A stretch of 46,363 nucleotides of DNA, taken from the IMG/VR virus record IMGVR_UViG_3300032257_000022, positions 1-46,363 of that record. The stretch is one strand, 5' to 3'. The position numbers were made by a program, and so were the translations under genes. This document shows positions 1,270 through 44,198 of this stretch, in pieces. Under the pieces are notes generated by a model that was given only the letters and a program-made list of their open reading frames with translations, was not told the DNA's origin and did not search any database. Position 1 is the first letter of the stretch; each line of letters opens with the position of its first letter. This DNA comes from a virus. Its lineage: Duplodnaviria; Caudoviricetes.

Positions 1270-1869
1270 TTACGCTGTTTCTATGGTTATGTTATTAGAG
1301 CTGGCGTTACCAGACTCGTCATTAATCACTATTAAATGTGTTGAGGGTATATTAGCAGGTATTGTGATAGTCACAGCCCCTGCATAATTCACCCCGTATA
1401 TGTTATGTCCTACTAATAAATCTCGAGCTAGCACAGTGTATGTTGCTGCTGTAACCTGTGTGTACTTAACAGGGGCTTCAAGTGTTCCGCCACCTACAAA
1501 GCCTATACCTTGTGAGCCTTGGACGTTAACCAGCTTACCCCATGTACCATCAGGGTTCTTAAACTGGAGGCTCTCGCCTTTCCATCTATGCTCAGGTACT
1601 ACACCATCAGCACCGGCTGTGCCCGGTAAGCCCCCCGGGCCGGGCAAGCCTTGCTCACCTTTTGCCCCCGGGATACCTTGTAGTCCTCTTTCCCCACGAT
1701 CTCCTTTCTCACCTCTATCTCCCTTATCTCCTTTAGGGCCAACTATTCCTTGTGGGCCATTCAGCCCTTGCTTACCTTCTACACCTTCCTCACCCTTCCT
1801 GCCCTTAAGAACAGAAAGGGGGACGCTAGAAAGCTTCCTAACCGTAGCATCTTTTAATGCCTTAGCCAT
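1270..1869 (-). CDS. Collagen-like (Gly-X-Y) fibre protein
   Basis: About 22 consecutive G-X-Y triplets (GRKGEEGVEGKQG...GADG) followed by a short beta-rich C-terminus. Confidence 0.8.
   Translation of the reverse strand: MAKALKDATVRKLSSVPLSVLKGRKGEEGVEGKQGLNGPQGIVGPKGDKGDRGEKGDRGERGLQGIPGAKGEQGLPGPGGLPGTAGADGVVPEHRWKGESLQFKNPDGTWGKLVNVQGSQGIGFVGGGTLEAPVKYTQVTAATYTVLARDLLVGHNIYGVNYAGAVTITIPANIPSTHLIVINDESGNASSNNITIETA
1800..1813. repeat. Dispersed 14-bp palindrome YGHYCYTARGRDCR (first of 22 copies; all positions listed in findings)
   Basis: TGCCCTTAAGAACA here. 22 copies found by eye between 1800 and 44195. Confidence 0.9.
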
Positions 1870-3791
1870 TAAGCAATCTCTTCCAGCAACCCATCTTTAT
1901 TGATGGATACGATAGTACCGTTAATTTCATATACACCGGGCTCTAGTTTAGAAGTAGTGTCAGCCTTAGGCTCACTAGTAATAGTTTGTTTCTCTTTGCC
2001 TAATGCTTTATCTAATGTCCGCTCTATGCCATCAATAACTCCTGAACGCTTAGAAGGAACTATGCGACTCTCTCCCTCTCCTTGTGGAGATAGATCTTTC
2101 CTAGGCACCTCAGTAGGCTCTGGTGTAGCTTGTAAAGCTTCAAAGATCTTCTCACCGAACTGCTCATACCGTGTACTGTTCTGGATGTGCGCTAAGGCTC
2201 TGCCTGAAGCATTCAAAGTGTCTAAAGAGTTATTGATATTAGCAACCATCTTAATGGTGTTAGCATCACTAGTAGTGGCTGTCATAAAGACGCCACCATC
2301 CTCACGCAAGCCTAGCTCCATAGTCTTAGGATCGTAAGCTTTCTGCACAGCCCCTACAATAGACGAGATACCGTTCTTAACAGTTGAGGTAGCGTTAGCT
2401 ACAACAGAAGCTGGCGCATACTTATGTAAGTACTCTTTAGATTCAGGTTTGGATAACCAATCGTTGACCAACTTAGTGTACATACCTCTGGAATCGGGTG
2501 ATGTGTTGATGCCAGTTAGCATAGTCTCTATTGACTTGTTAATAGGCTCAATGTCCTTTTTAGCAGCTCCTTGTTCCACTGCTTGACTAGTCCACTCATT
2601 CATTACAGTAGGCATGTTTACATTTTCAGTGTAGGAGCCGTCCACACTACCTGCTACTGCGTCCATAGCATCACTAATAAAGTCTACACCTATTGATGAT
2701 TTCAAGACTAATGCTGTGATAGTCTCGCCAGTTATCTGAGACATAGCAGCGACAGTAGCAATAGACTTGTGCTGTAGTAACTTGTTCTTAGATGTCTCAG
2801 TAAGAATGTTGTTTCTATTCTTAGCTTCGTCAGCTGTAATCTGACCATTGTTGGTAGCGATAGCAGTCTTAAGCATGCGGTCACCTGAGGCTATATAGCT
2901 CTCAATGACGTTGCTACCTTTACCTGCTGGGTACTCATTAGCATACTCAGCTTTAAATAACCCGTAAGCTTCGTTGAGTAGCACTTCCTTCTCAGCGGCA
3001 TTCTTATCAGACATGCGGCCAATGTCCCGAATAGTGCTAGATAAGTTATTCAACCTAGCAACACCAGTATCCTGATACTCAGGGCTGGCTAATTGCACTT
3101 CAGATATAGTAGCTTGTACAGCCTTCTTTCTTTCCCAGTCCATTCTACGTTCTTCTAGGGACAGTTTCTCTTGTACTTGTGGATACCATTGCTCAAAGTT
3201 CCCTACTGGATCAACACCATACTTAAAGGCTTGTGTTCTAGCTTGTTTAATAAATGCGTCTTGTTGCTTAGTTGCTGCAGTGCGTGACTTCTCAATAATA
3301 TCAATTGTTGCTGAGTAATCCCCTAGCACTGAATCACGCATACTACGGAACTCAGCTGCTAATGCAGGAGCCCGGTTAATGTATTGGCGTGTAAGAGTCT
3401 CTACACGGGCCTTTAAGCCCAGTTCTGAGGTAGCCCCTTGGGCTAGGAAGTCTGACAGTTTTGCATACTCCTTATCTGCTTGAGATAAAGTGATGCTAGC
3501 GCCTTCTTCAAACTCGGCTAAAGCTTCTTGGGCAGTAAGATCTTCACCTTCCATCTCTGCTGAAACATCTGTTTGATCTTGTAGGAACTCTTGCTCGTAA
3601 CCCTTAATCTCATTGGTCAGACCTTCTCGTAACTTATCAGACTGAGATTCTTTATGTAGGTCTAAAGCAAGAGAGCCTGCTGTCTTTATAGCCCCGGATA
3701 AGTCAGGTACGGCAGAAGGCGTTGCTGGCCCTACTGCTGTTGGTGTGGTGAGTACTGGGGCATCTATGACACCTTGCGTAAAATTAGCCAT
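1869..3791 (-). CDS. Putative internal virion (ejection) protein
   Basis: 640 aa, predicted helical, last of three genes after tail tube B, as in podovirus core protein clusters. Confidence 0.6.
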   Translation of the reverse strand: MANFTQGVIDAPVLTTPTAVGPATPSAVPDLSGAIKTAGSLALDLHKESQSDKLREGLTNEIKGYEQEFLQDQTDVSAEMEGEDLTAQEALAEFEEGASITLSQADKEYAKLSDFLAQGATSELGLKARVETLTRQYINRAPALAAEFRSMRDSVLGDYSATIDIIEKSRTAATKQQDAFIKQARTQAFKYGVDPVGNFEQWYPQVQEKLSLEERRMDWERKKAVQATISEVQLASPEYQDTGVARLNNLSSTIRDIGRMSDKNAAEKEVLLNEAYGLFKAEYANEYPAGKGSNVIESYIASGDRMLKTAIATNNGQITADEAKNRNNILTETSKNKLLQHKSIATVAAMSQITGETITALVLKSSIGVDFISDAMDAVAGSVDGSYTENVNMPTVMNEWTSQAVEQGAAKKDIEPINKSIETMLTGINTSPDSRGMYTKLVNDWLSKPESKEYLHKYAPASVVANATSTVKNGISSIVGAVQKAYDPKTMELGLREDGGVFMTATTSDANTIKMVANINNSLDTLNASGRALAHIQNSTRYEQFGEKIFEALQATPEPTEVPRKDLSPQGEGESRIVPSKRSGVIDGIERTLDKALGKEKQTITSEPKADTTSKLEPGVYEINGTIVSINKDGLLEEIA

Positions 3792-6700
3792 TATTCAGCT
3801 CCCGTAAATATCTGTTCGCCTAGGCCATGGTCTAGTAAGGCTCGTAGTTTCTCTTTCTGTTCTTCGTTGATAGACACTGTACCATTAATAGCCGCTAAAA
3901 TCTCTGACCTGATTTCTGGCCCTGCAGTAGCGTACTGTATCATGCTAGTTATCACACTGTCTCCAATGTCTTGTAAGCTGCGTCTATCTAACTTGATAAA
4001 CTCTTCTCGATAAATCTCTTGTTCTGAAGGATTAAGTCCAGCAATCAAAGCTTGGTGGGCTTTTAACTGTGGTAAGTACTCGTTTCTGTTCTCATACTTC
4101 AGATTAATCCTGCGGATAGATTCATGCGCTAACTTAGCAGAGTTCTGTATAGCTTTCTTATCATCTCTAAAACGACCTAATAGCTTATACACCTCGTCTT
4201 CAGAATAAGTGCTGAAGCCAAATAGTTTAGCTAATGCTGTAGAAGCTGTGGCCCGTAAGTTAGCACTGCCTTTTCCAGATACAATCTGCCCCATCTTAAT
4301 GGCATACCGATACTTTAAGTAATCATCCGCACCTGACGCAATAGAAGACACAGACATTAAAGAATCAGTTATTTTATCAGTAGTGCTTAAGTCTGGCGCA
4401 TTGTATAGATGCTGTATGTCAGTAAGAACCCTGCCAAATCGCCCCTCTTTGAAATGTAGAAGGTTATAAGAAGGGCCTAATGCTACTTTAAAGACTTCGC
4501 CTTTAGCCAAGTTGCTAAACACGTCAAAGAATGGGATGCCCATCTGTTCTGCGAAAGGGGCAAATGATTTACTGAACTGTATCTCAGGCTGTTTCTCCTC
4601 ACCCATAACCGTTTGGATCATTGTGTTCATGCCTAAGTCCACTAATCCGCCCTTAAGGGCAAGAAGCGTCTTAGGATCAATCTCGAACCCAGCCTCTTCC
4701 TGTAGCTTTTCGAAAGCAGCATTGAGGCCTATGGCATAACCACCAAATAATGTCATGTTAGCAGATAATACTTTGGCCTTATCGGCTCCTGAAAGTACTT
4801 TACTGCCTCCCCATGACGAGGGAAGAACCGATAGCATTGCTTTATGAGGCACCGCTATGAACTGTAGTGGCAACGAAAGTATGCCTTTTTGATATTTGAA
4901 TGTCCCCGGTAAGGTCATTGCATAGCTTAATTCTCTTGCTGTAGCGGCAATCTGATCAGCATACTGCTTCTCCATCCACTTGCCTGCTAGCTTAGGGTTC
5001 TGATCCATCCAACGCTTACGCGCCATTAACCATGAGCCTGTCAAGTTAATAAACTCTCCTGCATCAAAGCCCACCATTCTTGATACTTCTAGCCCTTTCT
5101 TAACAGGGCCTGTGACGGAATCATAAACTCTGCCTACCTTGGAACCAATGTGATCTTTATGAATATCTTTAACCAAACCTTCTACAAAGGCGTGAGAATC
5201 CACACTGAAAGGTAGTCCAGATTTAGTAACATAGGTATCCACTAGAACTTTAAATTCATCCTCGGGCATACCTGCCATCTTAGCTCCGTAACTAAGGCCC
5301 CAAGCCTCTCTTCCAGCCTGCTTAGATTTGTAAGTGGCGCGTGCAATAGATAACCCTGCTAATTCCCTTGAGAAGCTGGTAGCTAAGTATTTAGGGTCAA
5401 GGAAGCTGAACTGCATTAACTGCCCTGCCTGTATGGGCAACTGTCTTAACGGGCGTAATGAGATGTAAGCAATAGAACTCAACTGCCTAGCTGTCCTAAT
5501 AGGATTAAAATCTAATCCCTTCTCTCTAATCAATCTAGTGAAAGGTGCTGCGTAAGGTTCCAATGTCTCAGACAAATTAAACACCATGCTCTTCCAAGCC
5601 TGTGATGTCTTAGTGGGTATACGTTCCATGTTCTGTACTAAATCAAAGATGGCTTTAGCATCTGTGAGCTCTTCTGCAGTAACCCGGGCACGACTAACTT
5701 GGCTCCACTCGGTAGGGAAAGATTGTAAATCAAGTTTACTTCCCCAAGTATTCATCCAACGATTCTTCGTAGAAGTTAATACATCCTCCATAGCGTACCG
5801 GTTAGATACAGTACGGGCTGTTCTGAACAAAGATTCTACTGGGTCTTCAATACGAGCTTGGCCACCATCTACAGCGCCATGTAATCTCTCACCCCGATGT
5901 TTGGTAGTGCGTAACCCAGAACTGTACACATCGTAGTCTGTAACCATCTGCTTACCAAAATCCATCTCTTTAGCTGATCTAATAGCATAAGTACTGCCAC
6001 CTTCTAACACATCTGCGTTAGCTCTAGCAGCCGCTTCTAAAGCAGCTTTACGAGTACTGAAGCCAGCAACAGTTTCACCATGCCTAGCCAGTACATTCTT
6101 ATCTGTAATAGCTACGCCATCTAGTGTCATCTTAGTAGGCACCAAATCAACGAAGTAAGATTCTTTATAGGTACGCTGATAATAGCCTTCTATGTAGGGC
6201 AGTACATGATCTGGAACAGCCTTAGCTGTGGTATCAATGCCGTCCACAATAGCGTAGGTGGTCTTGTCAGTCCCGATCTTAGCGGCCTTATCTAGCTTAT
6301 AAATATCCCCACCCTCTTTCTCTAAACGAGTGATGAGTCTTGCATCTACTGGGACAATAGCTCCCGTAGTGGGATCAATAGCTGTTTTAATACTGCCCCA
6401 AGTTTCTGGCTCAACTGCCTTACCGTAGAATGAGGAGTCTCCACCAATACGCTGTATGTGCTGGTTACCTGAATTAACGATGCGGCTACGTTCTATCTCA
6501 TTAGTCATTCGCCAAAGAACATCATTCACCTTGCGGTATTTATAATAAGCACTAACCTCTTTCTCATTAAGGCCTTTCAACTTCAGGTCTGTAGGCGACC
6601 AAATCTTAGCCTCTTGGGCGCCTTCTTCTAAAACCTTGAAGAGCTTGATTCGACTCTTGTTGCCTAGCTTTCCTAAGTCAGTCCTAACGATGTCAATCAA

Positions 6701-8413
6701 ATGCTTCTCGTAATTAGACCCCTTATCTGCAGCACTTAGGAAGGCTTGTGATATATTTCTATCAAATCGGGCTACAATGTCCTGTAAGTACCCAGTCTTG
6801 AAAATGCCAAACAAGCCTTTAGACACAGAATCAGAGCCGTACACAGTGGCGTCTGTAGCGTCGTAAGCTTTGTTAAATTTATAGCCTAAGAAATAACTGC
6901 CCCGCTTACCGCCAGCCTCTTCTAAAGTAGTGGCTACCAGTTCCTTGGTCTTGGGATTCTTCTTGTATAGGACGACATCTCCCAGTTTAAGTATGTCTTC
7001 TGGGAAGGCCTCCTTAGCCATATCAAGCGCATCTTCTGCGTAACCAAATCCCGTCTTCTTCTTGCCGTAGATAACCTCACCTGCATAGCGTTCCCCATCA
7101 TCAACAAAGTCTCTGGTTGCTTTGACAGACAAGGTAGTGACATCTGTCAGTGCGTCGTCTATTTTGTTCTTAAGGGCAGTTTTCTCTTGCTCATAATAGT
7201 TAATACCATGAGTGTCGGAATCTTTCAGGACTTGATTAATGACCTGATCCATCTGCTCTAATTCATCAACTACATTAGTTGGTAGGTCTGTAAAGGTTTC
7301 CCCAGCTGCCTTAGGCATAACATAGTCTTGAATGATCTCGTCTTTAGTAGTACCTAGAACTTTAGCAGCCTCGCCTGAAGGCTCTGCTACAGCGTCTGCT
7401 GCCATTTTACCGGCTACTTCTGCATCTGCTGTGGCGGTCTTAGCTAATGGTGATGCTGTGTGCACCATGCCTTTCACTGTTCGCACTAGTGGCTTAACAG
7501 CCCCGGCTACGAACATTGTATCTAGTACACCCACGAAGTCGTCAATGGCTCTAAACGCTATGTGTGGATCATCGGCATCTAATAGATCTACCATTGGATA
7601 TAGCTTAACGAAATCAGATACAACATAGGGCAAGTCTTCGATTGCCTTAATGGCTCTGCGTGCTGCAGCCACCCGTTGGGGTGCTGGCATCTTAGCCATG
7701 GCATCACGGAAATCTACTTTAGCTTCGCCTGCAAATATTAAATGGTATATAGATTCGCCTAGAGACTGCTCACCTATTGCGGCCTCCCGGGCTTGGTTAA
7801 TAATGTAGCCTTCAATGAAGGGAACCATTACTTGTAGGAACCCACCAAAAGCAACTACAGAGCTCTTATTGAACTGAGCTATAGAAGCATTCATATCTTT
7901 CTCAATCACTTTCTGAGCATCAGTGTACTCATCCAGAAACTCTAAATCTAAATTGTGATTGATCTCTTGTGTCTTAGTAGCTGGCTGTCTTTTATTAGCA
8001 ACAGACCGCACATACTCGTCAGCTAAGTTGACATCTTCACCACGTTGTAACAGGTATTGCGATAGCAGAAAGTCGGCTTCATCAACTGTTGTTTCTGGCT
8101 TGGATAACTCTAGGTTTAATTTATCCCTACGGGCAGCGTCTGTATCTGTAGCAAGTAGTTTTTCTATATCGTTAACTTCTTGGCTAGTGCCGGTAGTTTG
8201 TAGCTCCTGCTTCATCTGAGCATACTTAGCAGCCACCCCTTTAGGAGAATCGTAACCACCCATAGCAGAACCAAAGAAGGCTCTATTAGAAGCCTCTTTT
8301 TCTGGAAGACCTTTACGAATTTCCCCTTCAGGATTTTCAGGAATGTAAGTCCATGCCGCCAATTCTTCCTCAACAGACTCATTCTCATTCGGTGCTGTTA
8401 TATCCCATTCCAT
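3791..8413 (-). CDS. Large putative internal virion (ejection) protein
   Basis: 1540 aa; size and position match podovirus core proteins. No RNA polymerase motif recognised. Confidence 0.65.
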   Translation of the reverse strand: MEWDITAPNENESVEEELAAWTYIPENPEGEIRKGLPEKEASNRAFFGSAMGGYDSPKGVAAKYAQMKQELQTTGTSQEVNDIEKLLATDTDAARRDKLNLELSKPETTVDEADFLLSQYLLQRGEDVNLADEYVRSVANKRQPATKTQEINHNLDLEFLDEYTDAQKVIEKDMNASIAQFNKSSVVAFGGFLQVMVPFIEGYIINQAREAAIGEQSLGESIYHLIFAGEAKVDFRDAMAKMPAPQRVAAARRAIKAIEDLPYVVSDFVKLYPMVDLLDADDPHIAFRAIDDFVGVLDTMFVAGAVKPLVRTVKGMVHTASPLAKTATADAEVAGKMAADAVAEPSGEAAKVLGTTKDEIIQDYVMPKAAGETFTDLPTNVVDELEQMDQVINQVLKDSDTHGINYYEQEKTALKNKIDDALTDVTTLSVKATRDFVDDGERYAGEVIYGKKKTGFGYAEDALDMAKEAFPEDILKLGDVVLYKKNPKTKELVATTLEEAGGKRGSYFLGYKFNKAYDATDATVYGSDSVSKGLFGIFKTGYLQDIVARFDRNISQAFLSAADKGSNYEKHLIDIVRTDLGKLGNKSRIKLFKVLEEGAQEAKIWSPTDLKLKGLNEKEVSAYYKYRKVNDVLWRMTNEIERSRIVNSGNQHIQRIGGDSSFYGKAVEPETWGSIKTAIDPTTGAIVPVDARLITRLEKEGGDIYKLDKAAKIGTDKTTYAIVDGIDTTAKAVPDHVLPYIEGYYQRTYKESYFVDLVPTKMTLDGVAITDKNVLARHGETVAGFSTRKAALEAAARANADVLEGGSTYAIRSAKEMDFGKQMVTDYDVYSSGLRTTKHRGERLHGAVDGGQARIEDPVESLFRTARTVSNRYAMEDVLTSTKNRWMNTWGSKLDLQSFPTEWSQVSRARVTAEELTDAKAIFDLVQNMERIPTKTSQAWKSMVFNLSETLEPYAAPFTRLIREKGLDFNPIRTARQLSSIAYISLRPLRQLPIQAGQLMQFSFLDPKYLATSFSRELAGLSIARATYKSKQAGREAWGLSYGAKMAGMPEDEFKVLVDTYVTKSGLPFSVDSHAFVEGLVKDIHKDHIGSKVGRVYDSVTGPVKKGLEVSRMVGFDAGEFINLTGSWLMARKRWMDQNPKLAGKWMEKQYADQIAATARELSYAMTLPGTFKYQKGILSLPLQFIAVPHKAMLSVLPSSWGGSKVLSGADKAKVLSANMTLFGGYAIGLNAAFEKLQEEAGFEIDPKTLLALKGGLVDLGMNTMIQTVMGEEKQPEIQFSKSFAPFAEQMGIPFFDVFSNLAKGEVFKVALGPSYNLLHFKEGRFGRVLTDIQHLYNAPDLSTTDKITDSLMSVSSIASGADDYLKYRYAIKMGQIVSGKGSANLRATASTALAKLFGFSTYSEDEVYKLLGRFRDDKKAIQNSAKLAHESIRRINLKYENRNEYLPQLKAHQALIAGLNPSEQEIYREEFIKLDRRSLQDIGDSVITSMIQYATAGPEIRSEILAAINGTVSINEEQKEKLRALLDHGLGEQIFTGAE

Positions 8414-8808: not shown

Positions 8809-8809
8809 A

Positions 8810-9320: not shown

Positions 9321-11654
9321 CTACACCCTTGTTGTTCCTGTGTAGGAGATTGCCCATCCTAGCACGTACATATCTTTACCGGCTTCAGAGGAAAGCTTAA
9401 ATGACAATGCTTTGCCTTTACCTCGAATCTTATTCTTAGTCGTAATAACTTCTTGTCCATAATCAAACGCAGTGCCTATAGCACCGGGGATGAAAGGACG
9501 CACAAATCTATAGGCTTGGAAAGTGTTTCCCCAACGGCCTGCAGAACTATCCGACCATTCCCAACGTGTTTGTAAATTACAAGAACTCGGGAAATCAAAC
9601 TCTGAATTGCCACTTCCATCGTCTACCCAATTGTTTTCTGTTCTACCAAAGTGCATAGTCAAGTAACGACCTTGCTTGTCTCGTGCTGAATCCCCTAGTA
9701 GCTCATGCCCAGTAACGATATAACTTTCATAACTAATTCCATCCTCTGTTTCGCCAGCATTCTCCCAATCTAGGAAGCTCGTCTTAGTAAACTCACCTAA
9801 AGTGTATTGGTAATCAGTAGTGCCAGAATTAGGTTTAATCACTAGGTACTTCCTATCAGTTACTGCGGCTGTCCTAGCAGTGTCTGGAACAGTTACTGGG
9901 TTAGCGCCAGCACCCTCTGTAACAGCCACACCAGCTACCGTCACAGGGTCTAAAAACTCAGTGAGTGTATAATTAGCCAATGGCATATAGCCAGCTAAAT
10001 ATGGAGACTCCGTATCGTTAGCTCTGTCATTAATAGTGGACGTATAGAAGGCGCCTAGAACAGTGTCGAATATCAGTTCTCTATTGAACATCTGACGATT
10101 GGTGATGCCATCATAAGCACTTGTGTCATTGTATAGCCAAGCCACTTTCTTAGTAGCTTCATCGTAATCACCAACAGCATGCTCTCTGCCCGGGCTAGAA
10201 ATCTCAGAATAAAAAGTTTGTATTGTCGTCTCAGTTAAGTTCTGAGCTACCAATCGGCCTGTTTGATCATTAGGAGTTAGCACATATATACCACCAGAAG
10301 ACCAATAAAACCCAACCCCTTCGGCTGAAACAATGCTTCGCGCACTAGTGGCACCGACGCTGCTAACCTTAGTGATTTCATAATTAGTAGCTTTGAATCC
10401 TTCGGCACCAGATACTTGCCACACACCGTTCTCAGCAACTACTACTAAGCTGTTACCTATAGGAAGTAACTTTAATATGTTGCCTGATTCTGGTATGACA
10501 ATTGTTCCGCCATCCGTATCAACGATGTCAGCAATAATCTCTGCAGTAGGGTCAGCCTCTTGGTAGCACTTGCCTGCATCGTCATTTTTAGATAAGTTGG
10601 CTTGGCTAAATAAAACAACCCCAGTAGAAGTTGGGGCGTAGTATCGTAGTGTTGGATCAAATGTGTCTGGGACACTTGACTGCAATCCAGCATAAAAAAT
10701 ACGCCCTGCATAAGCGGCTACAGTAGCAAACCTACCTTCCTCAGTCTCGCCACCTATACTGCCATACGCAGTGCCATATAGCTCATTAATCCATGCAGTC
10801 CTGTCTGCATCACGATCAAAGAAAGACATGATGTTTCTGCCCTTAGGGGCGAATGTCGTACCAAAATCTTGCTTTCTTAATAGCGATGGTGAGAATACAT
10901 CACTGGAGTTCTTGCCGTATGTCCAAATCATGGTGTCATTAGGGTAATACCCAGAATACCCGGAGGCACAAGTTCCCGGGTAAGCTGCATAGTAAGTAAT
11001 GATGTGGGCTTTCGTCCAGCCTTGATTATGCAGATTGTATATGTGATTTAAGCCAGTATTACTATTAGGATCAATGCAGATAGTTAAGCTATCTACTTCC
11101 TGCTCAGAGTCTGTTCCCCAAATATCTCGCACTTCTAACTCTATCAGAGTGCTAGTGAAAACATCAGATGTTGAGTTGTACTTAATGCGATATGGTTGCA
11201 TGTCAGTGCAAGTAATGACGACTTCACCATTAATGGTTGCATAGTCTAATACAGTATTGCCCGAGGTCTCTGGAATAGTCATGTAGACAGGAGAACTGCC
11301 TTGGTTCAACTGACTAGCTGCTGCTGATGGAGAACTTTTAGTTAGATCAATAAACCATAAGAACTGCCCAGTCTGGATAATTCCTATAGTTAATGATGGA
11401 TCGCCATCTACATTGTCCCACTTGTAAGTGGATAGTGAGGCATTGGGGACTGTGCTGGCATTTAAACCGAAAGACTGCTTAAAGGCAGACTGTTCATAAG
11501 TCATGCCTTTACGTCTACGCCTTGAGCCGTCTCGATTAAGGATGAAATTATCTTCATCTACTGAAGCATTTTCTGGAAACGTGAGGGGGCTTGCCTCAGT
11601 AATTAGCCCCTGTACGAATGTTAAATACTCTTTATGCTGTTCAGCTTGCGGCAT
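9321..11654 (-). CDS. Tail tubular protein B / nozzle (stabilisation protein)
   Basis: 777 aa beta-rich, starts FVQGLITEASPLTFPENASVDEDNF; follows tail tube A. Confidence 0.8.
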   Translation of the reverse strand: MPQAEQHKEYLTFVQGLITEASPLTFPENASVDEDNFILNRDGSRRRRKGMTYEQSAFKQSFGLNASTVPNASLSTYKWDNVDGDPSLTIGIIQTGQFLWFIDLTKSSPSAAASQLNQGSSPVYMTIPETSGNTVLDYATINGEVVITCTDMQPYRIKYNSTSDVFTSTLIELEVRDIWGTDSEQEVDSLTICIDPNSNTGLNHIYNLHNQGWTKAHIITYYAAYPGTCASGYSGYYPNDTMIWTYGKNSSDVFSPSLLRKQDFGTTFAPKGRNIMSFFDRDADRTAWINELYGTAYGSIGGETEEGRFATVAAYAGRIFYAGLQSSVPDTFDPTLRYYAPTSTGVVLFSQANLSKNDDAGKCYQEADPTAEIIADIVDTDGGTIVIPESGNILKLLPIGNSLVVVAENGVWQVSGAEGFKATNYEITKVSSVGATSARSIVSAEGVGFYWSSGGIYVLTPNDQTGRLVAQNLTETTIQTFYSEISSPGREHAVGDYDEATKKVAWLYNDTSAYDGITNRQMFNRELIFDTVLGAFYTSTINDRANDTESPYLAGYMPLANYTLTEFLDPVTVAGVAVTEGAGANPVTVPDTARTAAVTDRKYLVIKPNSGTTDYQYTLGEFTKTSFLDWENAGETEDGISYESYIVTGHELLGDSARDKQGRYLTMHFGRTENNWVDDGSGNSEFDFPSSCNLQTRWEWSDSSAGRWGNTFQAYRFVRPFIPGAIGTAFDYGQEVITTKNKIRGKGKALSFKLSSEAGKDMYVLGWAISYTGTTRV

Positions 11655-13200: not shown

Positions 13201-13218
13201 ATTATTGCCCTTAAGGTC

Positions 13219-13246
13219 AAAAATCAGGAGGCCTTTCGGCCCCCAT
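13219..13246 (-). terminator. Rho-independent terminator after the capsid genes
   Basis: Minus strand GGGGGCC-GAAA-GGCCTCC then TGATTTTT. Confidence 0.75.
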
Positions 13247-23612: not shown

Positions 23613-23888
23613 ACTCAGACGACCGTCTTATAAGGGTAAACCCCTAGTACATCATAGAACGCTCTGTATGCCTCTCTAATCAACGATAACATTCATTGAT
23701 ACCTAACCATAGGTCGACCGTAGATCGTGGCGTACAGAGCAAATAAACTCATTCTATGGCCATTCATTAACTTAGTTTATTACTTTATGGTTACCATAAG
23801 TTAAATCTATAGGTGATTGGTTATATCTATAGTCTGCCCTTAGGGGCAAATAAGTAGACACATTTCAGATGCGAAGCACCCTAAGCTA

Positions 23889-27439: not shown

Positions 27440-27496
27440 GCCAGCTAACGCTGCCCCTAAGGGCAGTTAATTCTAACTACTTAGAAGGAAATTATT

Positions 27497-28282: not shown

Positions 28283-29992
28283 ATGATGATCCTCAATTTC
28301 TATACCGTACTCAAGAGGGTGCGGGCACTGGTAGGCAGTGCAAACATGAGGCTACAGTTTGAGAAGCTAGATCAACCTCGCACTGATGGCAAAACTATTT
28401 ATGTGCCTTACCCTAGCTCTGAATGGTCTGAAAAGGAGATGACCCGCTGGGAGTATTCTGTGTACCACGAGATAGGACATTGTGTAGCACCTAACAATGA
28501 ATGCTTTGATGTATTGAAAACCTCAGGCATTAATCCTCAATCCTTTATGGGTAGGTTATGGAATGTCGTAGAAGATGTACGGCAGGAGCATAACCAATAC
28601 GGGGAGTATGCAGGACGGGATGCCACCATGCAGAAAGGGCGCTGTGCTTTCTTGGATAGCCAACTTGAGAGTGGTAACTATGGCTCTGGGCCTGAGGAAG
28701 ACGACAAGCAAAATGCTTTTGAAGCAGCACTCACTTGGATGTCACCTATGATGGAGGACGACTACCCGCTATTAGCAGGCTACGCTGAGAAGTTTGAAGA
28801 GCAGATGCATGACGCGGGGAAAGACTACTATCATAAATTGCTGGACTCCGGTGACCGCTTTGACCCTAAGGGCAAATCAGCAAGGGAGATGATACCACTC
28901 ATCAAGGAGATGATGGACTATCTAGGTTTTGATGCTGAGAAGGAAGAAGAAGAAGCCAAGAAAGAGGAAGGCGAGACTGTTGATGGTGGTGAGAAGCTGA
29001 TGGACGACCACGGTGAGTCTATGATCAGGGAAGGGGAAGAAGGTGCGCCCAGTGATGAGGCTGGCGAGGAACGACCTGATGGTGAGGAAACGTCAGCACG
29101 TAAGCGAGTCTGGAAAGCAGCTACCGGTGAGTATATCCCTTACCTGCCTAGTGAAGTAATGAAAACCACAGAGTTTGATGGGCGTCTCCCTGAGGGCTTT
29201 GGTCATTATGGGGCAGAGCATGTCAAAAGCCATTTAGAATCTTCTGATGTAGGCAAAGGACTTGCTAACACGGTGCGTAAATTGTTACAGGTTTATACAG
29301 CTACCCGCTGGGAGCATGGGCAGAAAAAGGGCAAGCTAGGTAAAGGCTTGCATCGTGTAGTGACTGGACGTGGCGATTACCAGCGAAAAATATTCAAGAA
29401 AAAAGCTGAGAAGCTGGACTTGGATGTTGCTGTGACATTGCTAGTGGACTGTAGTGGCTCTATGAATGGTGAGAAGTACAACCAAGCTGCTGAAGCTGCC
29501 TTGTTGCTTAATGATGCCATAGCGACTACATTACGCATCCCGTTACAGGTGACTGGCTTCACTGAAACTAGAGAAGAGCGAGGAGAAGACAGGTTTTTAC
29601 TGCATCACCTCATCTTTAAAGCTTTCGATGCAGCCGTGCCTAGAACTAAGTTGATTCATCGCTTTGCTCAGGCTTCTAAGTGCTTAGAACAAAACGCTGA
29701 TGGGGATTCCATCCTGTTAGTCCACAATGAACTATTGACCCGCAAGGAGAAACGAAAGGTTTTGATTGTACTTAGTGATGGCTCACCTGCAGCTTATAGA
29801 CCCGGAGGTGTGTCGGACTTCACTAAGAAAGTGGTTCGAGATATAGAGAAGTCTAGCCCTGTAGAGATTTACGCTATAGGTATCGAGACTGAATCTGTAC
29901 GGCATTTTTACAAAGACTATACGATTCTTAACAACGCAGAAGAATTAGATAGTTGCTTATTAAACTTAATCAAACGCAAAATCATTTGCTAG
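28283..29992 (+). CDS. CobT-like protein: N-terminal HExxH domain plus C-terminal vWA domain
   Basis: HEIGH, WNVVEDVR, acidic linker, MIDAS DCSGS, VLIVLSDGSP, AIGI. Confidence 0.85.
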   Translation: MMILNFYTVLKRVRALVGSANMRLQFEKLDQPRTDGKTIYVPYPSSEWSEKEMTRWEYSVYHEIGHCVAPNNECFDVLKTSGINPQSFMGRLWNVVEDVRQEHNQYGEYAGRDATMQKGRCAFLDSQLESGNYGSGPEEDDKQNAFEAALTWMSPMMEDDYPLLAGYAEKFEEQMHDAGKDYYHKLLDSGDRFDPKGKSAREMIPLIKEMMDYLGFDAEKEEEEAKKEEGETVDGGEKLMDDHGESMIREGEEGAPSDEAGEERPDGEETSARKRVWKAATGEYIPYLPSEVMKTTEFDGRLPEGFGHYGAEHVKSHLESSDVGKGLANTVRKLLQVYTATRWEHGQKKGKLGKGLHRVVTGRGDYQRKIFKKKAEKLDLDVAVTLLVDCSGSMNGEKYNQAAEAALLLNDAIATTLRIPLQVTGFTETREERGEDRFLLHHLIFKAFDAAVPRTKLIHRFAQASKCLEQNADGDSILLVHNELLTRKEKRKVLIVLSDGSPAAYRPGGVSDFTKKVVRDIEKSSPVEIYAIGIETESVRHFYKDYTILNNAEELDSCLLNLIKRKIIC

Positions 29993-30002: not shown

Positions 30003-31097
30003 ATGACTACAAGTACTATTGATGCACTTATCGACAAAGAACTGGAAGAGCTACGTGGTGGTGAGAAGGTAACTAAGAAAGCTGCCAAGAAACGTGCACC
30101 CAAGAAAGAAGAGCCTTTGTTCAGCAAGAAAAAAGAGCCTTCTGGTGATGCCCCTAAGGGCACAAAGAAGTACAGCGAGTTATTCGGTGCTGTACCTCCA
30201 ACCGGTACTGACTGGGATGTGCCTGTCTATGCTCGTGAAGACTGGGGGGAGAATGAAGAGTTCATTCCTGCAGTCAATGATGACTACGTGTTCGACCATT
30301 CAACACTGGAACCTCTTATCATTTCCTACATTAAGAATCTTAAGACTCTGACGGTAGGGCCAACTGGTTGTGGTAAGACTTCTGTTGTAGAACAGATAGC
30401 AGCAAGGATTAACCAGCCTTACTTGCGGATCAATGGCCGTGCTGACATGGACAGTGATACGTTACTAGGCAGACCGTGGGTAACTGACGGTAGCATGGAC
30501 TTCATGCTAGGTGAGATGCCTAAGGCAGCACAGGCAGGCTTCTTGATTGCCTTTGATGAGCCATGGAAGACTCCTTCTGGTATTCAAATGGCACTGCAAC
30601 GTTTCTATGAGCGTGATGGCGCCTTCCAGCTGGACGACATGCCCGGAGATTTAGCGGATAAGATTATCCACTCTGACCCACGCTGTCGCATGTTCTTATC
30701 AGATAACGTAGTAGGTACAGGTGATGGTGCAGCCCAGTATGGTGCGACATTAATACAGGATGGTTCAACCCTGAACCGTATGGATGTTGTTATCAAGATG
30801 GGTTACTTGAGTGCTAAGGATGAAGCACTGCTTATCAAAAAGGCACACCCAACATTGACAGATGCGTTAGCTAGTCGTATGGTTAAAACCTTCAACCTAA
30901 TACGAACCAATGTAGATCAAGGGGAACTGTCGGCTGCTGTTAGCCCTCGTAACCTTCTTACATGGGCAGACCTCGCCATCGAATTAGGCGACGAAAAGAT
31001 TGCCTTTATCTGGTCTGTACTAGGACGCTATTCGTTACCGGAAGAGTTAGGTACTGTTAAAGAACATTACCGTACTGTCTTCGGAGCGTCTTTGTAA
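30003..31097 (+). CDS. CobS/MoxR-like AAA+ ATPase
   Basis: Walker A GPTGCGKT, Walker B IAFDE, LNRM arginine finger, SPR sensor; adjacent to the vWA gene. Confidence 0.88.
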   Translation: MTTSTIDALIDKELEELRGGEKVTKKAAKKRAPKKEEPLFSKKKEPSGDAPKGTKKYSELFGAVPPTGTDWDVPVYAREDWGENEEFIPAVNDDYVFDHSTLEPLIISYIKNLKTLTVGPTGCGKTSVVEQIAARINQPYLRINGRADMDSDTLLGRPWVTDGSMDFMLGEMPKAAQAGFLIAFDEPWKTPSGIQMALQRFYERDGAFQLDDMPGDLADKIIHSDPRCRMFLSDNVVGTGDGAAQYGATLIQDGSTLNRMDVVIKMGYLSAKDEALLIKKAHPTLTDALASRMVKTFNLIRTNVDQGELSAAVSPRNLLTWADLAIELGDEKIAFIWSVLGRYSLPEELGTVKEHYRTVFGASL

Positions 31098-31146: not shown

Positions 31147-31956
31147 ATGCGCTTAAGTCAGTCAGAAGTAAATGGAATTGTCCTTGGGAACAAATTGGAA
31201 GTAGGCCAAACGATACGCATAAATCATAATAACTCACACTGCTCAGGCAGTAGCCCATCACTAAAAGTAGAAAGAACCTCATCAACAACAACAAAATTAA
31301 AATGCTTTAGATGTGGTGGATACGGAACTTATAATACCGGACACTACGAAGCACCTACTAAGTACTTAGAACCACACAGATTACCAGTCAACCTGCCAGT
31401 AGATAGCGATAACAATATAAGTAACTGGCCACCCCAAGCTAAGGTTTGGATTAACAAAGCTTCATTAACAAAAGCAGAAATAAATAAATTAGGATTAGTC
31501 TATAGCAAGTCGATGCGAAGAGTCCTTACCCCGATATATTCAAATCATAAGTTCGATGGGTATGTAGCACGTAAATTATTCGATGATGATCCAGCCCCTA
31601 AATATTTTATAAGAACTAAATCAAGACAACCCCAACCACAGCATTATGAACACGGCACTGATGTAGTGGTACTCGTAGAGGACGTGCTGAGTGGGACTAA
31701 GATCAGTAGGCATGCTTCCTGCATATCTTTACTAGGGACTAATTTTTCTGAAACAGCATTGGATAAGATACTGACAGGAGACTATAGCAAGGCAGTGATT
31801 TGGCTAGATGATGACAACCCTTTAGTACAAGCCAAACAACGTGCCCTTAAGAACAAATTAGAATTGTACATGGATGTGGAATTAATAACCGGCCTCGGCA
31901 AAGACCCAAAGGAATGTAGTGATGCTGAGATTAAATCAATAATATTTGGAGAATGA
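31147..31956 (+). CDS. DNA primase (zinc-binding domain plus Toprim)
   Basis: H...C and CFRC zinc ligands; VVLVED, LLGT, IWLDDD, KDPKE. Start refined to ATG 31147 with GGAG RBS. Confidence 0.85.
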   Translation: MRLSQSEVNGIVLGNKLEVGQTIRINHNNSHCSGSSPSLKVERTSSTTTKLKCFRCGGYGTYNTGHYEAPTKYLEPHRLPVNLPVDSDNNISNWPPQAKVWINKASLTKAEINKLGLVYSKSMRRVLTPIYSNHKFDGYVARKLFDDDPAPKYFIRTKSRQPQPQHYEHGTDVVVLVEDVLSGTKISRHASCISLLGTNFSETALDKILTGDYSKAVIWLDDDNPLVQAKQRALKNKLELYMDVELITGLGKDPKECSDAEIKSIIFGE

Positions 31957-32686: not shown

Positions 32687-33934
32687 ATGGAGTTAGCGAT
32701 ACTTAAACTACTATCATGCAAAGACAAGCACACCCGCTTCATGCCACTCATCAAGAAGAAGTTTGTTACCAAGGAAACTTGGACAGTGCTGGAAGCTTAC
32801 ACGCATTACTTTGAGTTTATGGATGAGATTACTTGGGCACCTTTTGTGTCTTGGTTCTTTACCACTAAGCATACTGGTATGTCTGATGTAGCCGTGAAAG
32901 CTTACCGTATTATCTTCAATCGCATTGAAGCTTATGAAGTGGATGTGCTAGATGAGAACATTCTCAATAGTCTTATCGAAAGGGATTCAGCTACTAAGAT
33001 TATGGAGGTCGCTAGAAGCATAGCTGAAACAGAAGGCACCCATGGCATGGAAGAGATCATGGAGCTATATGACAAGTATGAAACTGAGTCTGGTAAGGCA
33101 GGTGAACTGGATAAGCACTTCATTGATGACGACTATGAAGCACTCTATGACCACATATACTCTGAGAAGGACTGTGTGGCTTGGAGACTGCCTGAATTGA
33201 ATGCGGCTACCGGAGGCCTTAGGCAAGGTAATTTTATCGTTGTAGGGGCTTGTCCTGACTCTGGTAAGACTACGCTGATGTGTAATGAACTGACACACAT
33301 AGCACTGCAAGTGCCTGAAGCTAAATACGTGCATTACTTCTGTAACGAAGAGCATGGTAGAAACATTAAGCACAGGATACTTCAATCAGCATTAGCTAAG
33401 ACACATAGCTGGTTAAAAGCTAATTGGTCTACAGCAGTAGAAGACTATAAGAAATATTTTATCCACGAACCTAACATTAAAGTTTTCCATAACACCAGTA
33501 TCAGTACCCATGATGTTGAGACAGTGCTTAAGAAATACCCACCAGCACTGATCATCTTCGACCAGCTAAGAAAGTTCAGAGGGTTTGAGAAGGTTAGTAA
33601 GGGGGAGGTAGACAGGCAAGCACTTATATTCGCTTGGGCTAGGGGTATTGCTGCTATGGCACCTACGATTGCCGTACATCAAGCAGGAGGCGATGCTTAC
33701 GGTCAGATGTATATTGGCATGGAACAACTGTATAACAGCCGTATAGGGATACAGGGGGAGGCTGACGCCATTATCACACTAGGTCGTTCTAATGACTTAG
33801 AACTTCCACCGAATATGCGGGGATTGTATGTCCCTAAGAACAAATTAATAGGATTAGACCCAAAGGCTAGCAATGGTCGTTGGAATATTGAAATACAACC
33901 TGAGATAGCTAGGTTTAAGAGCTGTAAGGAATAA
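32687..33934 (+). CDS. DnaB-like (SF4) replicative helicase
   Basis: Walker A GACPDSGKT, NEE, IIFDQL, HQA, GEADAII, PKNKL. Confidence 0.9.
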   Translation: MELAILKLLSCKDKHTRFMPLIKKKFVTKETWTVLEAYTHYFEFMDEITWAPFVSWFFTTKHTGMSDVAVKAYRIIFNRIEAYEVDVLDENILNSLIERDSATKIMEVARSIAETEGTHGMEEIMELYDKYETESGKAGELDKHFIDDDYEALYDHIYSEKDCVAWRLPELNAATGGLRQGNFIVVGACPDSGKTTLMCNELTHIALQVPEAKYVHYFCNEEHGRNIKHRILQSALAKTHSWLKANWSTAVEDYKKYFIHEPNIKVFHNTSISTHDVETVLKKYPPALIIFDQLRKFRGFEKVSKGEVDRQALIFAWARGIAAMAPTIAVHQAGGDAYGQMYIGMEQLYNSRIGIQGEADAIITLGRSNDLELPPNMRGLYVPKNKLIGLDPKASNGRWNIEIQPEIARFKSCKE

Positions 33935-34175: not shown

Positions 34176-35379
34176 AGTCCTAACAATAGATTTAGAAACC
34201 ACTATTAGAAACCATAAGGACTTAAGCGAGTTCCCTATTGGTAAAGATAAGGCTAGTCCCCATTTTCCTGATAATGAGATTGTTATGGCAGGGCACAAGA
34301 CGGGAGCAGCCTACACACATACAGCTATGCATACTAGAAGTCTCATATCTTGGTTAGCCCCTGTAGCCTATGAAGAGGGGGATGAGATCATATCATTCTT
34401 GATAGGTCAGAATATTAAGTTTGATTTGCTTTACCTAATGAAAGAACACTACGACGAGATGACTGAATACCTGTTAGAGAACTACGTCTGGGACATACAG
34501 CTAGCCGAGTACATCTTAACAGGGCAGGATGCTAAGTACGCCAGCCTAGACGGCATGGCTAAGAAGTATGGCCTGCCACTTAAAGATGACAAGATCAAAG
34601 AGTATTGGGAAGCAGGTATTGATACGACAGACATACCTGACGAGGAGCTTAAAAAGTATCTAATCAATGATGTTGATGTTACCTATGCAGTATTCGTAGA
34701 GCAGTTTAAACAAGCTAAGGAATTAGATTTACTACCTCTTATGTGGGATCAGATGGCAGCACTAGTAGCCACTACTGAAATGGAATACAACGGCATGTAT
34801 TTCAATACGCATAAGGCAGAAGATCTAGCCGACGATGTTAGGGAAGAGATAGCTGATTATGAAATAAGTGCACAATTGTTTATGAAACATTGTGGAATAG
34901 TTATGCCTAACCCAGCTTCTAACAAACATGTGGGGCTAGCTTTGTTTGGTGGCACTTATGAGTACACTAAGAAAGTAGAAGCAACTGATGAGTTCGGTAA
35001 TGTTATCCACTACAAGAGTGGTATGCGTAAAGGGGAAGTAAAGCTCAAGAATGAAAAAATTGCAGAAAATATTGAGGGCGTTGCAGCAGGGCTAGGAACC
35101 AAGACTACTAAGGGAGCCTTTAAGACAGACACAACTACCCTGAAAGAATTATCCGAGTCTCCAACAGTACTACCGATTGTTCAAGAGTTTATTGCTACCA
35201 TTTTGACCCTAAGAACATTAAACAAAGATCTATCAACTTACTACGAAGGGTACAGTGATCTAGTCTTTCCTGATGGTTGCATACACGGCAAGTTAAGCCA
35301 TGTAGGCACAGGTACAGGGCGACTCAGCTCACAATCGCCCAATCTGCAAAACACATCACACTCAACAGGAGAAGAATGA
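34168..35379 (+). CDS. Family A DNA polymerase part 1 (3'-5' exonuclease plus thumb)
   Basis: Exo I DLET, Exo II NIKFD, Exo III YLIND, EYNG; ends TGRLSSQSPNLQN. Start at ATG 34168 with AAGGAG RBS. Confidence 0.9.
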   Translation: MSKVLTIDLETTIRNHKDLSEFPIGKDKASPHFPDNEIVMAGHKTGAAYTHTAMHTRSLISWLAPVAYEEGDEIISFLIGQNIKFDLLYLMKEHYDEMTEYLLENYVWDIQLAEYILTGQDAKYASLDGMAKKYGLPLKDDKIKEYWEAGIDTTDIPDEELKKYLINDVDVTYAVFVEQFKQAKELDLLPLMWDQMAALVATTEMEYNGMYFNTHKAEDLADDVREEIADYEISAQLFMKHCGIVMPNPASNKHVGLALFGGTYEYTKKVEATDEFGNVIHYKSGMRKGEVKLKNEKIAENIEGVAAGLGTKTTKGAFKTDTTTLKELSESPTVLPIVQEFIATILTLRTLNKDLSTYYEGYSDLVFPDGCIHGKLSHVGTGTGRLSSQSPNLQNTSHSTGEE

Positions 35380-37005: not shown

Positions 37006-37057
37006 CTGTTCCTAGGAACATAACGCACAAGGATGTGCTTAATTTAGGAGAATAGCT

Positions 37058-37327: not shown

Positions 37328-38188
37328 ATGAAAAAGATTGAGACATTAGTAGAAGACATCTACGACTTATTTAATAACGGCCACCAATGCCATCCTGATA
37401 ACGTAGCGCACTTTGCTACTAACTTAGCAACCATGGTAGCTGATAGGCTGCAGGCTTACCAAGCACACGAAGAGCGTGCACCTACATTACGTGCTTCTAA
37501 TATTGGTAGGCCTTGTGTACGTCAAACCTTTTATGACCTTAAGGGCAGTGATAAGGAAGAGTTACTTCCACACACTAAGATTAAGTTTATGTTTGGTGAC
37601 ATCATTGAAGAACTCTTGTTATTCCTAGCCACTGAAGCAGGACATGAGGTGACTGATGAACAGAAAGAGTGTCACTTAGAAGGCATCACGGGCCACATAG
37701 ATGCTGTCATTGATGGTGTACTGGTTGACGTTAAGAGCGCTTCTAGTTACAGCTTCAAGAAGTTTCGTGATGGTGAACTCAAACATGGGGACACAGACCC
37801 CTTCGGTTATATAGGACAGATGAGTACCTATACCGAAGCCCTAGAGTTTGATCGTGGTGCCTTCCTAGTGATGGATAAGCAGAATGGAACCTTGTGCTTA
37901 CATGAGCCTGAAGAGTTAATAGATGCTAAGGCTAGGATATGTGAACTAAAGGATGCTACAGAGGGCACAGAGACCCCTGTAAGGCATTATGCACCTATAC
38001 CTGATGGTAAGAGTGGCAACATGAAGTTAGCAGTAGGCTGTCAATACTGTGGGCATAAGATTACATGCTGGGCTGATGCCAATGATGGCGAAGGCTTACG
38101 TGCTTATTCTTATTCAAATGGCCCACGTTTCTTAACATGGGTAGGCAAGGAACCTAACGTACCGGAGATACCACTGGAGGATCTATGA
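37328..38188 (+). CDS. PD-(D/E)XK exonuclease, Cas4-like
   Basis: RASNIGRPC, GHID...DVKS, Q..TY, C-terminal CQYC.HK..C. Confidence 0.85.
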   Translation: MKKIETLVEDIYDLFNNGHQCHPDNVAHFATNLATMVADRLQAYQAHEERAPTLRASNIGRPCVRQTFYDLKGSDKEELLPHTKIKFMFGDIIEELLLFLATEAGHEVTDEQKECHLEGITGHIDAVIDGVLVDVKSASSYSFKKFRDGELKHGDTDPFGYIGQMSTYTEALEFDRGAFLVMDKQNGTLCLHEPEELIDAKARICELKDATEGTETPVRHYAPIPDGKSGNMKLAVGCQYCGHKITCWADANDGEGLRAYSYSNGPRFLTWVGKEPNVPEIPLEDL

Positions 38189-38346: not shown

Positions 38347-38887
38347 GATACTGGGTGTTGATCCTTCGTTTAGAAACTTTGGCTATGCGCCAATGCTTTA
38401 TGACCCGGCTACAAAAGAGCTAAAGCTTGTTGAATTAGATTTGATACAGACTAAGCCTAACAAAGATAAAGATGTTCGTAAGAACAGTGCTGATTTGGCT
38501 TGTGCTAAGATTCTAATTGAAGAGTACAAGCTGCGGTGTGCTTGGTCTGATGTAGTTGTTGCTGAAGTACCAGTAGGTACACAATCAGCTAGGGCAGCAT
38601 GGTCGTTAGGAATCGCCCTGTGTGTCCTTGCGACAACAAATAAGCCTTTGGTACAGGTTACCCCTAAGCAGGTAAAAGAATGCAGTGTAGGAGATCCTAA
38701 GGCCTCTAAGCAGGACATGATTGACTGGGCTACAACAGCACACCCCCATAGTGATTGGTTAACCCGTAAAGTTAAAGGTAAGGTAGTGTTAACTAATGCT
38801 AACGAACATTTAGCTGATGCAGTAGCTGCAGTGTACGCAGGTATAGAAACAGATCAATTCAAAGGCATGCTAGCTTTACGCCCTTAA
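38333..38887 (+). CDS. RuvC-like Holliday junction resolvase
   Basis: ILGVDPS, VVAE, P..VK....G...ASK..MI, HLADA. Start refined. Confidence 0.85.
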   Translation: MSYIKILGVDPSFRNFGYAPMLYDPATKELKLVELDLIQTKPNKDKDVRKNSADLACAKILIEEYKLRCAWSDVVVAEVPVGTQSARAAWSLGIALCVLATTNKPLVQVTPKQVKECSVGDPKASKQDMIDWATTAHPHSDWLTRKVKGKVVLTNANEHLADAVAAVYAGIETDQFKGMLALRP

Positions 38888-38909
38888 GGGCAATTAATAG
38901 GAGAATATT

Positions 38910-40912: not shown

Positions 40913-40942
40913 AATTTGTTCCTAAGAACAAAGGAGTAGGAT

Positions 40943-42333: not shown

Positions 42334-42586
42334 CGTGCAGCAAGTTATGGTAATTGAATACCAAGGATATTATATTAAACTTCTATCTACTTACGGTTAT
42401 AGTATCCATGATGATAGAAATTCTAATAGTCCTGTAACCACTATTATCTTTAAAACAAATGAAAAAGCTAAGAAATATATTGATTATCTTAAGGGTAGTA
42501 CCCCTGCCCTTAGGAACAAATTTAAAGCCTGCACGGGCTGCCTGACGCCCTGTGATGAGTGTGTTAAGGCCCAGAGTAAGGAGTAA
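42293..42586 (+). CDS. Hypothetical protein with C-terminal CxxC..CxxC
   Basis: True start probably near 42335-42347. Confidence 0.55.
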   Translation: MKSGTHAQTKRVGNVQQVMVIEYQGYYIKLLSTYGYSIHDDRNSNSPVTTIIFKTNEKAKKYIDYLKGSTPALRNKFKACTGCLTPCDECVKAQSKE

Positions 42587-43586: not shown

Positions 43587-43767
43587 CTCTCATGTGGGTC
43601 ATGGCAGTTGTCATGTGCTCTATTCCTGCCCTTAAGGACATAATAGTGTCTGTCTGAACTTGGTTCTTTACTTCTAATGCTGCTTTCTCAGCAATCACAT
43701 TATAAATAAAATACCCACCAGTACCCAACATGGTTAGTATGACCACGAATATGGCTGCCCTAATCAT
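43396..43767 (-). CDS. Probable i-spanin (Rz-like)
   Basis: N-terminal transmembrane segment then coiled coil. Confidence 0.65.
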   Translation of the reverse strand: MIRAAIFVVILTMLGTGGYFIYNVIAEKAALEVKNQVQTDTIMSLRAGIEHMTTAMTHMRDDFIKSEKKANEQKKRFDLKGMEKLIRTDPKRAASVAYNSTDVLFSEIEARRRDFKGRGKAKD

Positions 43768-43955: not shown

Positions 43956-44162
43956 CTATCCTCCTATAAACTTATTGAAGGCACTGGATACGGATACCCC
44001 TATGCCACTAGATATTAATATGATGCCTAATAGTATACCCTTTCCACGGACTATCTGCGTCTTAAGGCTATCCACTTCAGCCTTCAGCTCTTTGACTTCC
44101 GTTGTTAGTAACTCTACAGCTGCAACTAACTTGCCTGCTTCTAAATCATTCATTGAGGACAT
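43956..44162 (-). CDS. Coiled-coil plus transmembrane protein (XhlA/holin-accessory-like)
   Basis: 68 aa, heptad repeat then C-terminal transmembrane segment. Confidence 0.55.
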   Translation of the reverse strand: MSSMNDLEAGKLVAAVELLTTEVKELKAEVDSLKTQIVRGKGILLGIILISSGIGVSVSSAFNKFIGG

Positions 44163-44198
44163 GTTGGGGACTCCACATTATTGTTCTTAAGGACAGTT

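Follow-up and report, generated by a model that had tools for sequence, protein, structure and literature searches.

Selected 14-bp palindromes along the genomes of Zobellviridae-like podophages and a candidate phage protein that may read them

The window and its palindromic sites

The window, that is, the whole stretch of 46,363 nt that was analysed, is a 46.4-kb virus contig with genes for a portal, a terminase, a major head protein, a tail appendage, a primase and a DnaB-like helicase, together with a Cas4-domain exonuclease, a RuvC-like gene, a CobT/CobS-like pair and a family A polymerase split over two main ORFs. Pfam and PHROG scans of its 71 ORFs found no RNA polymerase, integrase, repressor or HTH family. 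The terminase is 52–63 % identical to those of the Zobellviridae members P12053L, SIO1 and ICP2, and terminase, portal and gene order match those of classified members, which on sequence grounds identifies the window as a Zobellviridae-like podophage. The two-arm gene layout is common to the window and to members of this family (ICP2, PA11, CW02, SIO1, P12053L, ICBM1/2); unlike the window, the cultured members tested lack both the lattice of sites described below and the gene situated at 27735–28250. At the DNA level, no relative of positions 1–8000 of the window was found in the phage collection, and a scan with a helicase pattern likewise found no relatives.

A 14-bp dyad, YGHYCYTARGRDCR, matches the window 22 times, with starts identical to those reported in the first-pass annotation of this DNA, and 14 of the 22 sites have the exact form TGYYCYTARGRRCA. 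A symmetric matrix trained on the sites ranks all of them first, the weakest scoring 17.2 bits and the next-best match 12.7 bits. Two other sequences, TGTCCTTGGGAACA (31179..31192) and TGTTCGTAAGAACA (38473..38486), are possible degenerate sites, both weak. Markov models of orders 2–5 (60 runs each) predict 0.07–0.25 copies per genome, and synonymous-codon shuffles within genes (300 runs), a check proposed by that annotation together with the matrix, gave 0.34 coding sites on average and never more than 3, versus the 12 observed. The site pattern was defined post hoc, from sites already seen, which is offset by the recovery of the same site family in other genomes (see below). The palindrome is real and its excess over chance is confirmed.

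As previously claimed, more than half of the sites are inside ORFs: 12 are wholly coding, nine are intergenic and one, at 38879..38892, lies across the stop codon of the RuvC-like gene. The coding copies are located in the collagen-repeat tail fibre gene 1270–1869 (1800..1813), the internal virion protein gene 3791–8413 (4648..4661 and 7165..7178), the tail appendage (nozzle) gene 9321–11654 (10838..10851), the portal/head-tail connector gene 15681–17474 (17153..17166), the genes for the CobT-like (28861..28874) and CobS-like (30149..30162) proteins, primase (31842..31855) and helicase (33829..33842), the N-terminal ORF of the DNA polymerase gene (35204..35217), the Cas4-domain exonuclease gene (37534..37547) and ORF 42293–42586 (42505..42518). 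Eleven of these 12 copies are in a single shared codon frame, because a TAR stop would fall in another frame. The intergenic copies are at 13206..13219, 25010..25023, 27452..27465, 37007..37020, 40917..40930 and 44182..44195, at 23097..23110 and 23835..23848 in the non-coding DNA between the arms, and at 43627..43640, this last one being intergenic for the ORF set used and within the alternative ORF 43396–43767. Non-coding DNA, while holding nine sites, makes up only 8 % of the window.

Gaps between sites measure 527–5944 bp, in agreement with the ranges noted before. The even spacing that had also been claimed holds modestly in the window (CV 0.63, P=0.015; smallest gap 527 bp, P=0.003), and less uniformly across nine genomes, with P(CV) from 0.01 to 0.25.

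Site family and conservation in other phages

Site-rich records were reached through exact-word scans of viral contigs. Related phage records contain 18–37 copies, among them G031 (28), G049 (33), G051 (28), G044 (29) and G046 (18), and the partial records G058 and G032 contain 25 copies in 30 kb and 14 in 26 kb, respectively; the GC content of site-rich records ranges from 41 to 56 %. The core of the site family is GTT[AC][CT]TA[AG][GT]AAC, a form carried by a separate lineage, and the version of the window is shifted to GCCC halves. A family-wide matrix identified 19–37 sites in nine near-complete site-bearing genomes, versus 0–2 in reversed sequence and 0–3 in 19 comparison genomes (including ICP2, PA11, CW02, SIO1, P12053L, CRP-4, ICBM2 and MEP401), and strict site matches occurred in only five of 79 other portal-selected loci. 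The sites of the relatives are mostly intragenic, and the largest gap across nine genomes is 3.6–6.2 kb. In nine of nine genomes, site density is greater in the CobT-bearing (early/replication) arm, the contrast going from barely apparent (5.8 vs. 5.6 per 10 kb; barely in G067) up to 2.5-fold. An otherwise distant record of 66 kb, G057 (63 % complete), with CobT/CobS and a RuvC-like gene, contains 43–44 core copies within 11.5 kb, most of which lie between genes, in close pairs. The site could be used as a metagenome signature for this phage group.

The first-pass annotation suggested looking for synonymous-site conservation in relatives. In the CobT, CobS, primase and helicase genes of 80 loci selected by the 27735 gene, fourfold third positions differed in 6206 of 36864 comparisons inside sites (17 %) versus 943052 of 1874420 outside (50 %), the pairs not being independent. 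This indicates that the sites are selected at the DNA level within genes. Some site positions are old and others are lineage-specific. The helicase copy (33829..33842), encoding V-P-K-N-K, shows the deepest conservation of all: of the 69 helicase genes aligned, 66 carry a site there. The same position scores more than 20 bits in 9 of 13 site-bearing phages, being lost in G067, and the Pro before KNK is present in 13 of 13 site-bearing phages versus none of eight site-free ones. In the same alignment columns as the window copies there is also a site of L473 in the CobT-like gene, and sites of L474 and G046 in the primase gene.

Half-sites are lineage-specific (GCCC, GTCC, GTTA) around a fixed YTAR centre, combine independently and show no orientation bias. 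The number of perfect palindromes was 4, 5, 18 and 6, versus 4.4, 8.0, 15.8 and 6.3 expected from independent halves, and mismatches in the sense-strand stem (23 G.U, 30 A.C and 53 other) revealed no preference for G.U. Although palindromic sites might act without any protein, as RNA hairpins or DNA cruciforms, the independence of the halves and the lack of a G.U preference on the transcribed strand argue against this explanation, which we consider hardly plausible, and fit a protein with two-fold symmetry. The earlier proposal of a genome-wide site of the dimer type, rather than a classical operator, thus agrees with the independent halves, with the absence of orientation or RNA-stem bias and with the conservation of the DNA within genes; the binding itself we infer. 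Sigma-70-like matches in the region 22.8–34.2 kb amounted to 15, versus 28 in shuffles, and gave no link to promoters.

The gene at 27735–28250 and other possible partners of the site

The gene at 27735..28250 (+ strand), situated 270 bp downstream of the intergenic site at 27452..27465, codes for a helical protein of 171 aa, whose family has no name. Autoregulation was discarded, since the position of a site upstream of this gene is not fixed. The family comprises 688 clusters at 50 % identity, with "hypothetical" as the only name among the 120 homologues listed; sequence searches of Pfam, PHROG and PDB gave no match for the protein, and tblastn identified no cultured phage with the family. 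A weak match to phage PPpW-3 was a dead end, with 0 sites in that genome. The AlphaFold2 model is all-helical (pLDDT 84.5 for the full length and 92.7 for residues 1–120), and the conserved residues are concentrated in a P-x-x-W/Y-R-S-A-K-S helix (R-x-x-K-S) and in a G-x-x-x-G-K turn, E48, K87 and K110 being almost invariant and G105 conserved. Fold searches returned no clear match, nor was any known fold or motif for DNA binding recognised: the best VIA match, for residues 1–98, was the CarH helical bundle (8c31; Z 5.6, rmsd 3.6, 78 aligned), under the stated noise range, and the viral fold matches were uncharacterised phage proteins. The protein of the window is acidic overall, with a pI of 5.7 versus a family median of 8.4, and the gene is present twice in both G049 and G051. 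The conserved Arg is replaced in the window and in L473, alongside shifted half-sites (TGCCCT, TGTCCT), and also in G046, where the half-site is unshifted; changes in the conserved helix follow half-site shifts in G000 and L473 and not in G046.

Profile searches against all ORFs recovered the family from each of the 11 site-bearing genomes (six of which were reached via the site and four via the gene) and from none of 19 site-free ones. It was the only real family with this pattern, as other rows without site-free matches were apparent opposite-strand shadow ORFs of the same region, with no member in the window. The site-bearing fragments G032, G040, G043, G048, G058 and L474, which end before or near the gene region and gave no family match, were excluded. 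Starting from the gene alone, 79 of 80 loci reach at least three loose sites per 10 kb, with 792 loose matches in 1.08 Mb (7.35 per 10 kb) versus 96 for the reversed pattern, the loose pattern having been broadened after G034 had been seen. Control loci have about one loose match per 10 kb and were positive in 5 of 80 cases when selected by the nuclease and in 5 of 79 when selected by the portal. The 80 gene-selected loci apparently belong mostly to one lineage, 40–50 % identical to the query and of similar GC, and two changes are needed in each of the portal tree (20 rows) and a quick helicase tree (21 rows). In the former, the window groups with the site-free, gene-free MEP401, G012, G023 and MW202697 (100/99); in the latter, the site-free, gene-free ICP2 and VP41s3 are beside the site-bearing G000, G046, L473 and L474 (99), with ICP2 inside the helicase group of the window. 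To a limited extent, these comparisons suggest that the gene accompanies the sites on separate branches, with few independent contrasts because of the one main lineage among the 80 loci and the two changes per tree.

Among the binders put forward in the first-pass annotation, the products of 24066, 40521 and 42590 lack homologues among the relatives that were compared, and that of 22199 is present in site-free phages too. The gene at 27735–28250, absent from those candidates, appears to be the best candidate for a reader of the site, and it is reasonably likely that its product fulfils this function, probably as a dimer, to judge solely from the symmetry of the site.

Immediately after the candidate gene there is a gene for a CobT-like VWA-domain protein (28283..29992, + strand), followed by that for a CobS-like AAA+ ATPase (30003..31097, + strand), with an AAA_5 and a weak CbbQ_C match, which we take to be of the MoxR type. 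The candidate gene directly precedes CobT, within 150 bp, in the 80 gene-selected loci and in the window, and it is more than 2 kb away from CobT in G031 and G044. All 11 site-bearing genomes, as well as G057, contain the CobT/CobS pair, versus 2 of 19 site-free genomes; no member of the 27735 family was detectable in G057 (63 % complete) by profile search. This distribution, and the small number of independent contrasts, would also be expected if the 27735 gene were a lineage marker or an accessory gene and the site were read by the CobT/CobS-like pair or by another, undetected protein. Nevertheless, ICP2 and T5S1 possess CobT/CobS and lack both the sites and the 27735 gene, and VWA and AAA_5 domains are not known to act as sequence readers, which makes this alternative unlikely.

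A role of the sites as targets or stop signals of the Cas4-domain exonuclease of the phage was suggested by a first comparison, in which 9 of 12 site-bearing versus 0 of 11 site-free records were positive. However, only 3 of 80 nuclease-selected loci were site-rich, five site-bearing genomes lack the nuclease, and SIO1, P12053L, ICBM1, CRP-4 and HTVC104P contain the nuclease and only 0–3 matches. The exonuclease was consequently rejected as the partner of the site; this explanation is largely refuted and we give it next to no credence.

We also examined bacterial genomes. One exact word was found in around 360 scattered stretches in 596 Gb of prokaryote genomes and, among the matches listed (80 of 120), all were single, from unrelated taxa and none labelled as Verrucomicrobia. 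Of 151 genomes sampled from a single class (that of a Pseudoalteromonas genome), 22 contained the window consensus, with a maximum of two copies each. There was thus no enrichment of the site in the bacterial genomes searched (596 Gb for one word and 151 genomes of one class), and this scarcity makes a host-wide organiser site unlikely in the searched groups. The earlier idea that the sites titrate a host factor is therefore unsupported; a scan of bacterial chromosomes for the motif, suggested earlier for candidate hosts, found no enrichment in the collections searched. The LexA box of Verrucomicrobia, TGTTC-N4-GAACA, is similar in shape to the commonest variant of the site, and the word occurs in G057, where the phage gene was not detected, as could happen if the sites bound a host protein such as LexA, either as decoys or as SOS-coupled operators. 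This is very unlikely in view of the fixed YTAR centre with lineage-specific halves, of the tight association of the sites with a phage gene, and of the lack of a Verrucomicrobia label among the matches listed. A search for papers on the dashed LexA-type motif, outside which were subscription journals and supplements, found none.

Possible roles and known systems

We see an even chance for the reading that these selected, genome-wide sites are likely bound by the phage's own 27735 protein and organise the phage chromosome or mark it as self. The protein, which would be made early to judge from the position of its gene, would bind the palindromes, probably as a dimer, and coat the phage chromosome every 1–4 kb, and this coating would organise the DNA or mark self during infection. 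What counts seems to be coverage more than position, because the sites are mostly intragenic and unoriented, new positions arise, and gaps stay below about 6 kb; this is as in bacterial chromosome-organising sites, and inclines us towards organisation or self-marking rather than a transcriptional roadblock. Supposing that the 27735 protein is the reader, chromosome organisation or self-marking has a slight balance of probability on its side, and a roadblock or timer of transcription would be the less probable function, though a considerable one.

Pairs of VWA and MoxR-type AAA+ proteins remodel a dedicated client protein, so the CobT/CobS-like neighbours may remodel the 27735 protein at the expense of ATP, loading or stripping it. 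Only tentatively do we propose a complete three-gene system, in which a reader with a new fold and a lattice of palindromes, maintained despite its amino-acid cost, would be served by a VWA–AAA+ machine for loading or removal. If the pair does serve the 27735 protein, the phage "cobalamin auxiliary metabolic genes" would have to be reinterpreted; this is how CobT/CobS genes are treated in phage papers (e.g., PMC11705849).

With the same reader, the lattice could instead be a removable, stoperator-like roadblock that damps early/replication genes and times the late switch. The higher density of sites in the early/replication arm in all nine genomes fits such a role in transcription equally, as does the location of nine window sites in the scarce non-coding DNA, and stoperators are a described precedent (PMC9283540). 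Nonetheless, this reading appears rather unlikely, since the sites are symmetric, unoriented, mostly intragenic in relatives and also present in virion genes, there is no fixed distance between a site and the start of the candidate gene, and neither an integrase nor a repressor family was found among the 71 ORFs.

Organisation or self-marking by coverage, the reading that we prefer, has a parallel in matS/MatP, NBS/Noc, SBS/SlmA, parS/ParB and ram/RacA, whose sites are dispersed palindromes in coding DNA that seem to act by density rather than by promoter position. The lattice resembles them in being formed by dispersed palindromes kept inside coding DNA. However, these are host systems, with sites that are multicopy on the host, whereas the bacterial genomes that were searched show no enrichment of the present site, and the candidate matches none of their families or folds; in particular, the Pfam and PHROG scans of the 71 ORFs gave no ParB family match, and the candidate had no clear fold match.

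Among phages, the stoperators of Cluster A, read by the L5 repressor, also number more than 20 along the genome and have a phage protein as reader, as is putatively the case here. According to the source, though, they are asymmetric 13-mers, intergenic, oriented with transcription and read by a monomeric HTH repressor of a temperate phage (PMC9283540), whereas the sites described here are symmetric and lie mostly within genes, and no HTH match was obtained for the candidate. Cluster O mycobacteriophages carry a 17-bp dyad, TGTTCGGNNNCCGAACA, of two 7-bp arms and a 3-bp spacer, in more than 30 copies, around one third of them intragenic, with no meaningful orientation and a function given as unknown in the text available (PMC4351075). 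Both dyads are dispersed genome-wide, partly intragenic and unoriented, and the outer half-site TGTTC is common to the Cluster O repeat and the commonest variant of our site. They differ in that the former has invariant arms (TGTTCGG-N3-CCGAACA) and belongs to mycobacterial siphoviruses, with no reader named in that text, whereas the latter has 14 bp, a YTAR centre and degenerate halves, and belongs to Zobellviridae-like podophages. Searches for phage papers on the motif words, and for palindromes in Zobellviridae, with subscription journals and supplements outside their scope, found no papers. The lattice therefore resembles the Cluster O dyads and, in its logic, the stoperators, and is separated from both by the structure of its site. 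Palindromes of unknown function dispersed through phage genomes were already known, for the most part with no reader assigned. In the present large group of uncultured, aquatic-type phages, a single protein family accompanies the site, which narrows the question to one 171-residue protein and a 14-bp site.

Affinities of the two genome arms

Judged by sequence affinity, the window genome is a mosaic, in which the virion genes (13748–17474) and the replication arm (27735–38188) differ in their relationships. The virion genes are nearest to phages without the 14-bp palindrome lattice (major head protein, 65–68 % versus 35–38 %), whereas the replication arm groups with site-bearing phages. Nevertheless, 14-bp sites are present inside the virion genes, despite their nearest kin there being site-free.

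Additional dyads and the site cluster of G057

The window contains a second dyad family, (G/C)TTCTAA-N4-TTAGAAC, separate from the 14-bp palindrome and restricted to the early/replication arm (span 23595–33803). Its 10 copies are situated at 23597, 24034, 24713, 24828, 25264, 25945, 27472, 28246, 29675, and 33788, with a weaker copy at 31355; one of them overlaps the stop codon of ORF 27735, the candidate reader of the 14-bp site. Each of the other genomes compared has 0–2 copies, and the dyad looks like an operator whose regulator is private to the window phage. Other dyads occur in the site-free relatives L481 and L071, namely TTAGT-N3-ACTAA (four copies) and GTGACA-N5-TGTCAC (three copies).

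The 66 kb record of G057 (L304), a phage sharing the 14-bp site core, contains 43–44 copies of TGTTCCTAGGAAC[AG] within 11.5 kb (302–11768), most of them in pairs, at 27–60 bp spacing, that lie between small ORFs. This record is distant from the window, apart from CobT/CobS and a RuvC-like gene common to both.

Genome ends, non-coding tracts and split polymerase

The final 127 bases of the window (46237–46363) exactly repeat positions 990–1116, probably an assembly overlap; circular permutation of the genome, with a tail-gene end that varies, is likely. Between the divergent arms lie two non-coding tracts of very high AT content (23110–23320 and 25090–25260), possibly origin or genome-end elements. 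Two Lar-like restriction-alleviation genes lie in tandem at 41870–42333. DNA polymerase A (34162–36472) is split into two main ORFs separated by a 106-aa ORF; in ICP2, a site-free member of the Zobellviridae, the annotation joins the polymerase across an HNH gene.
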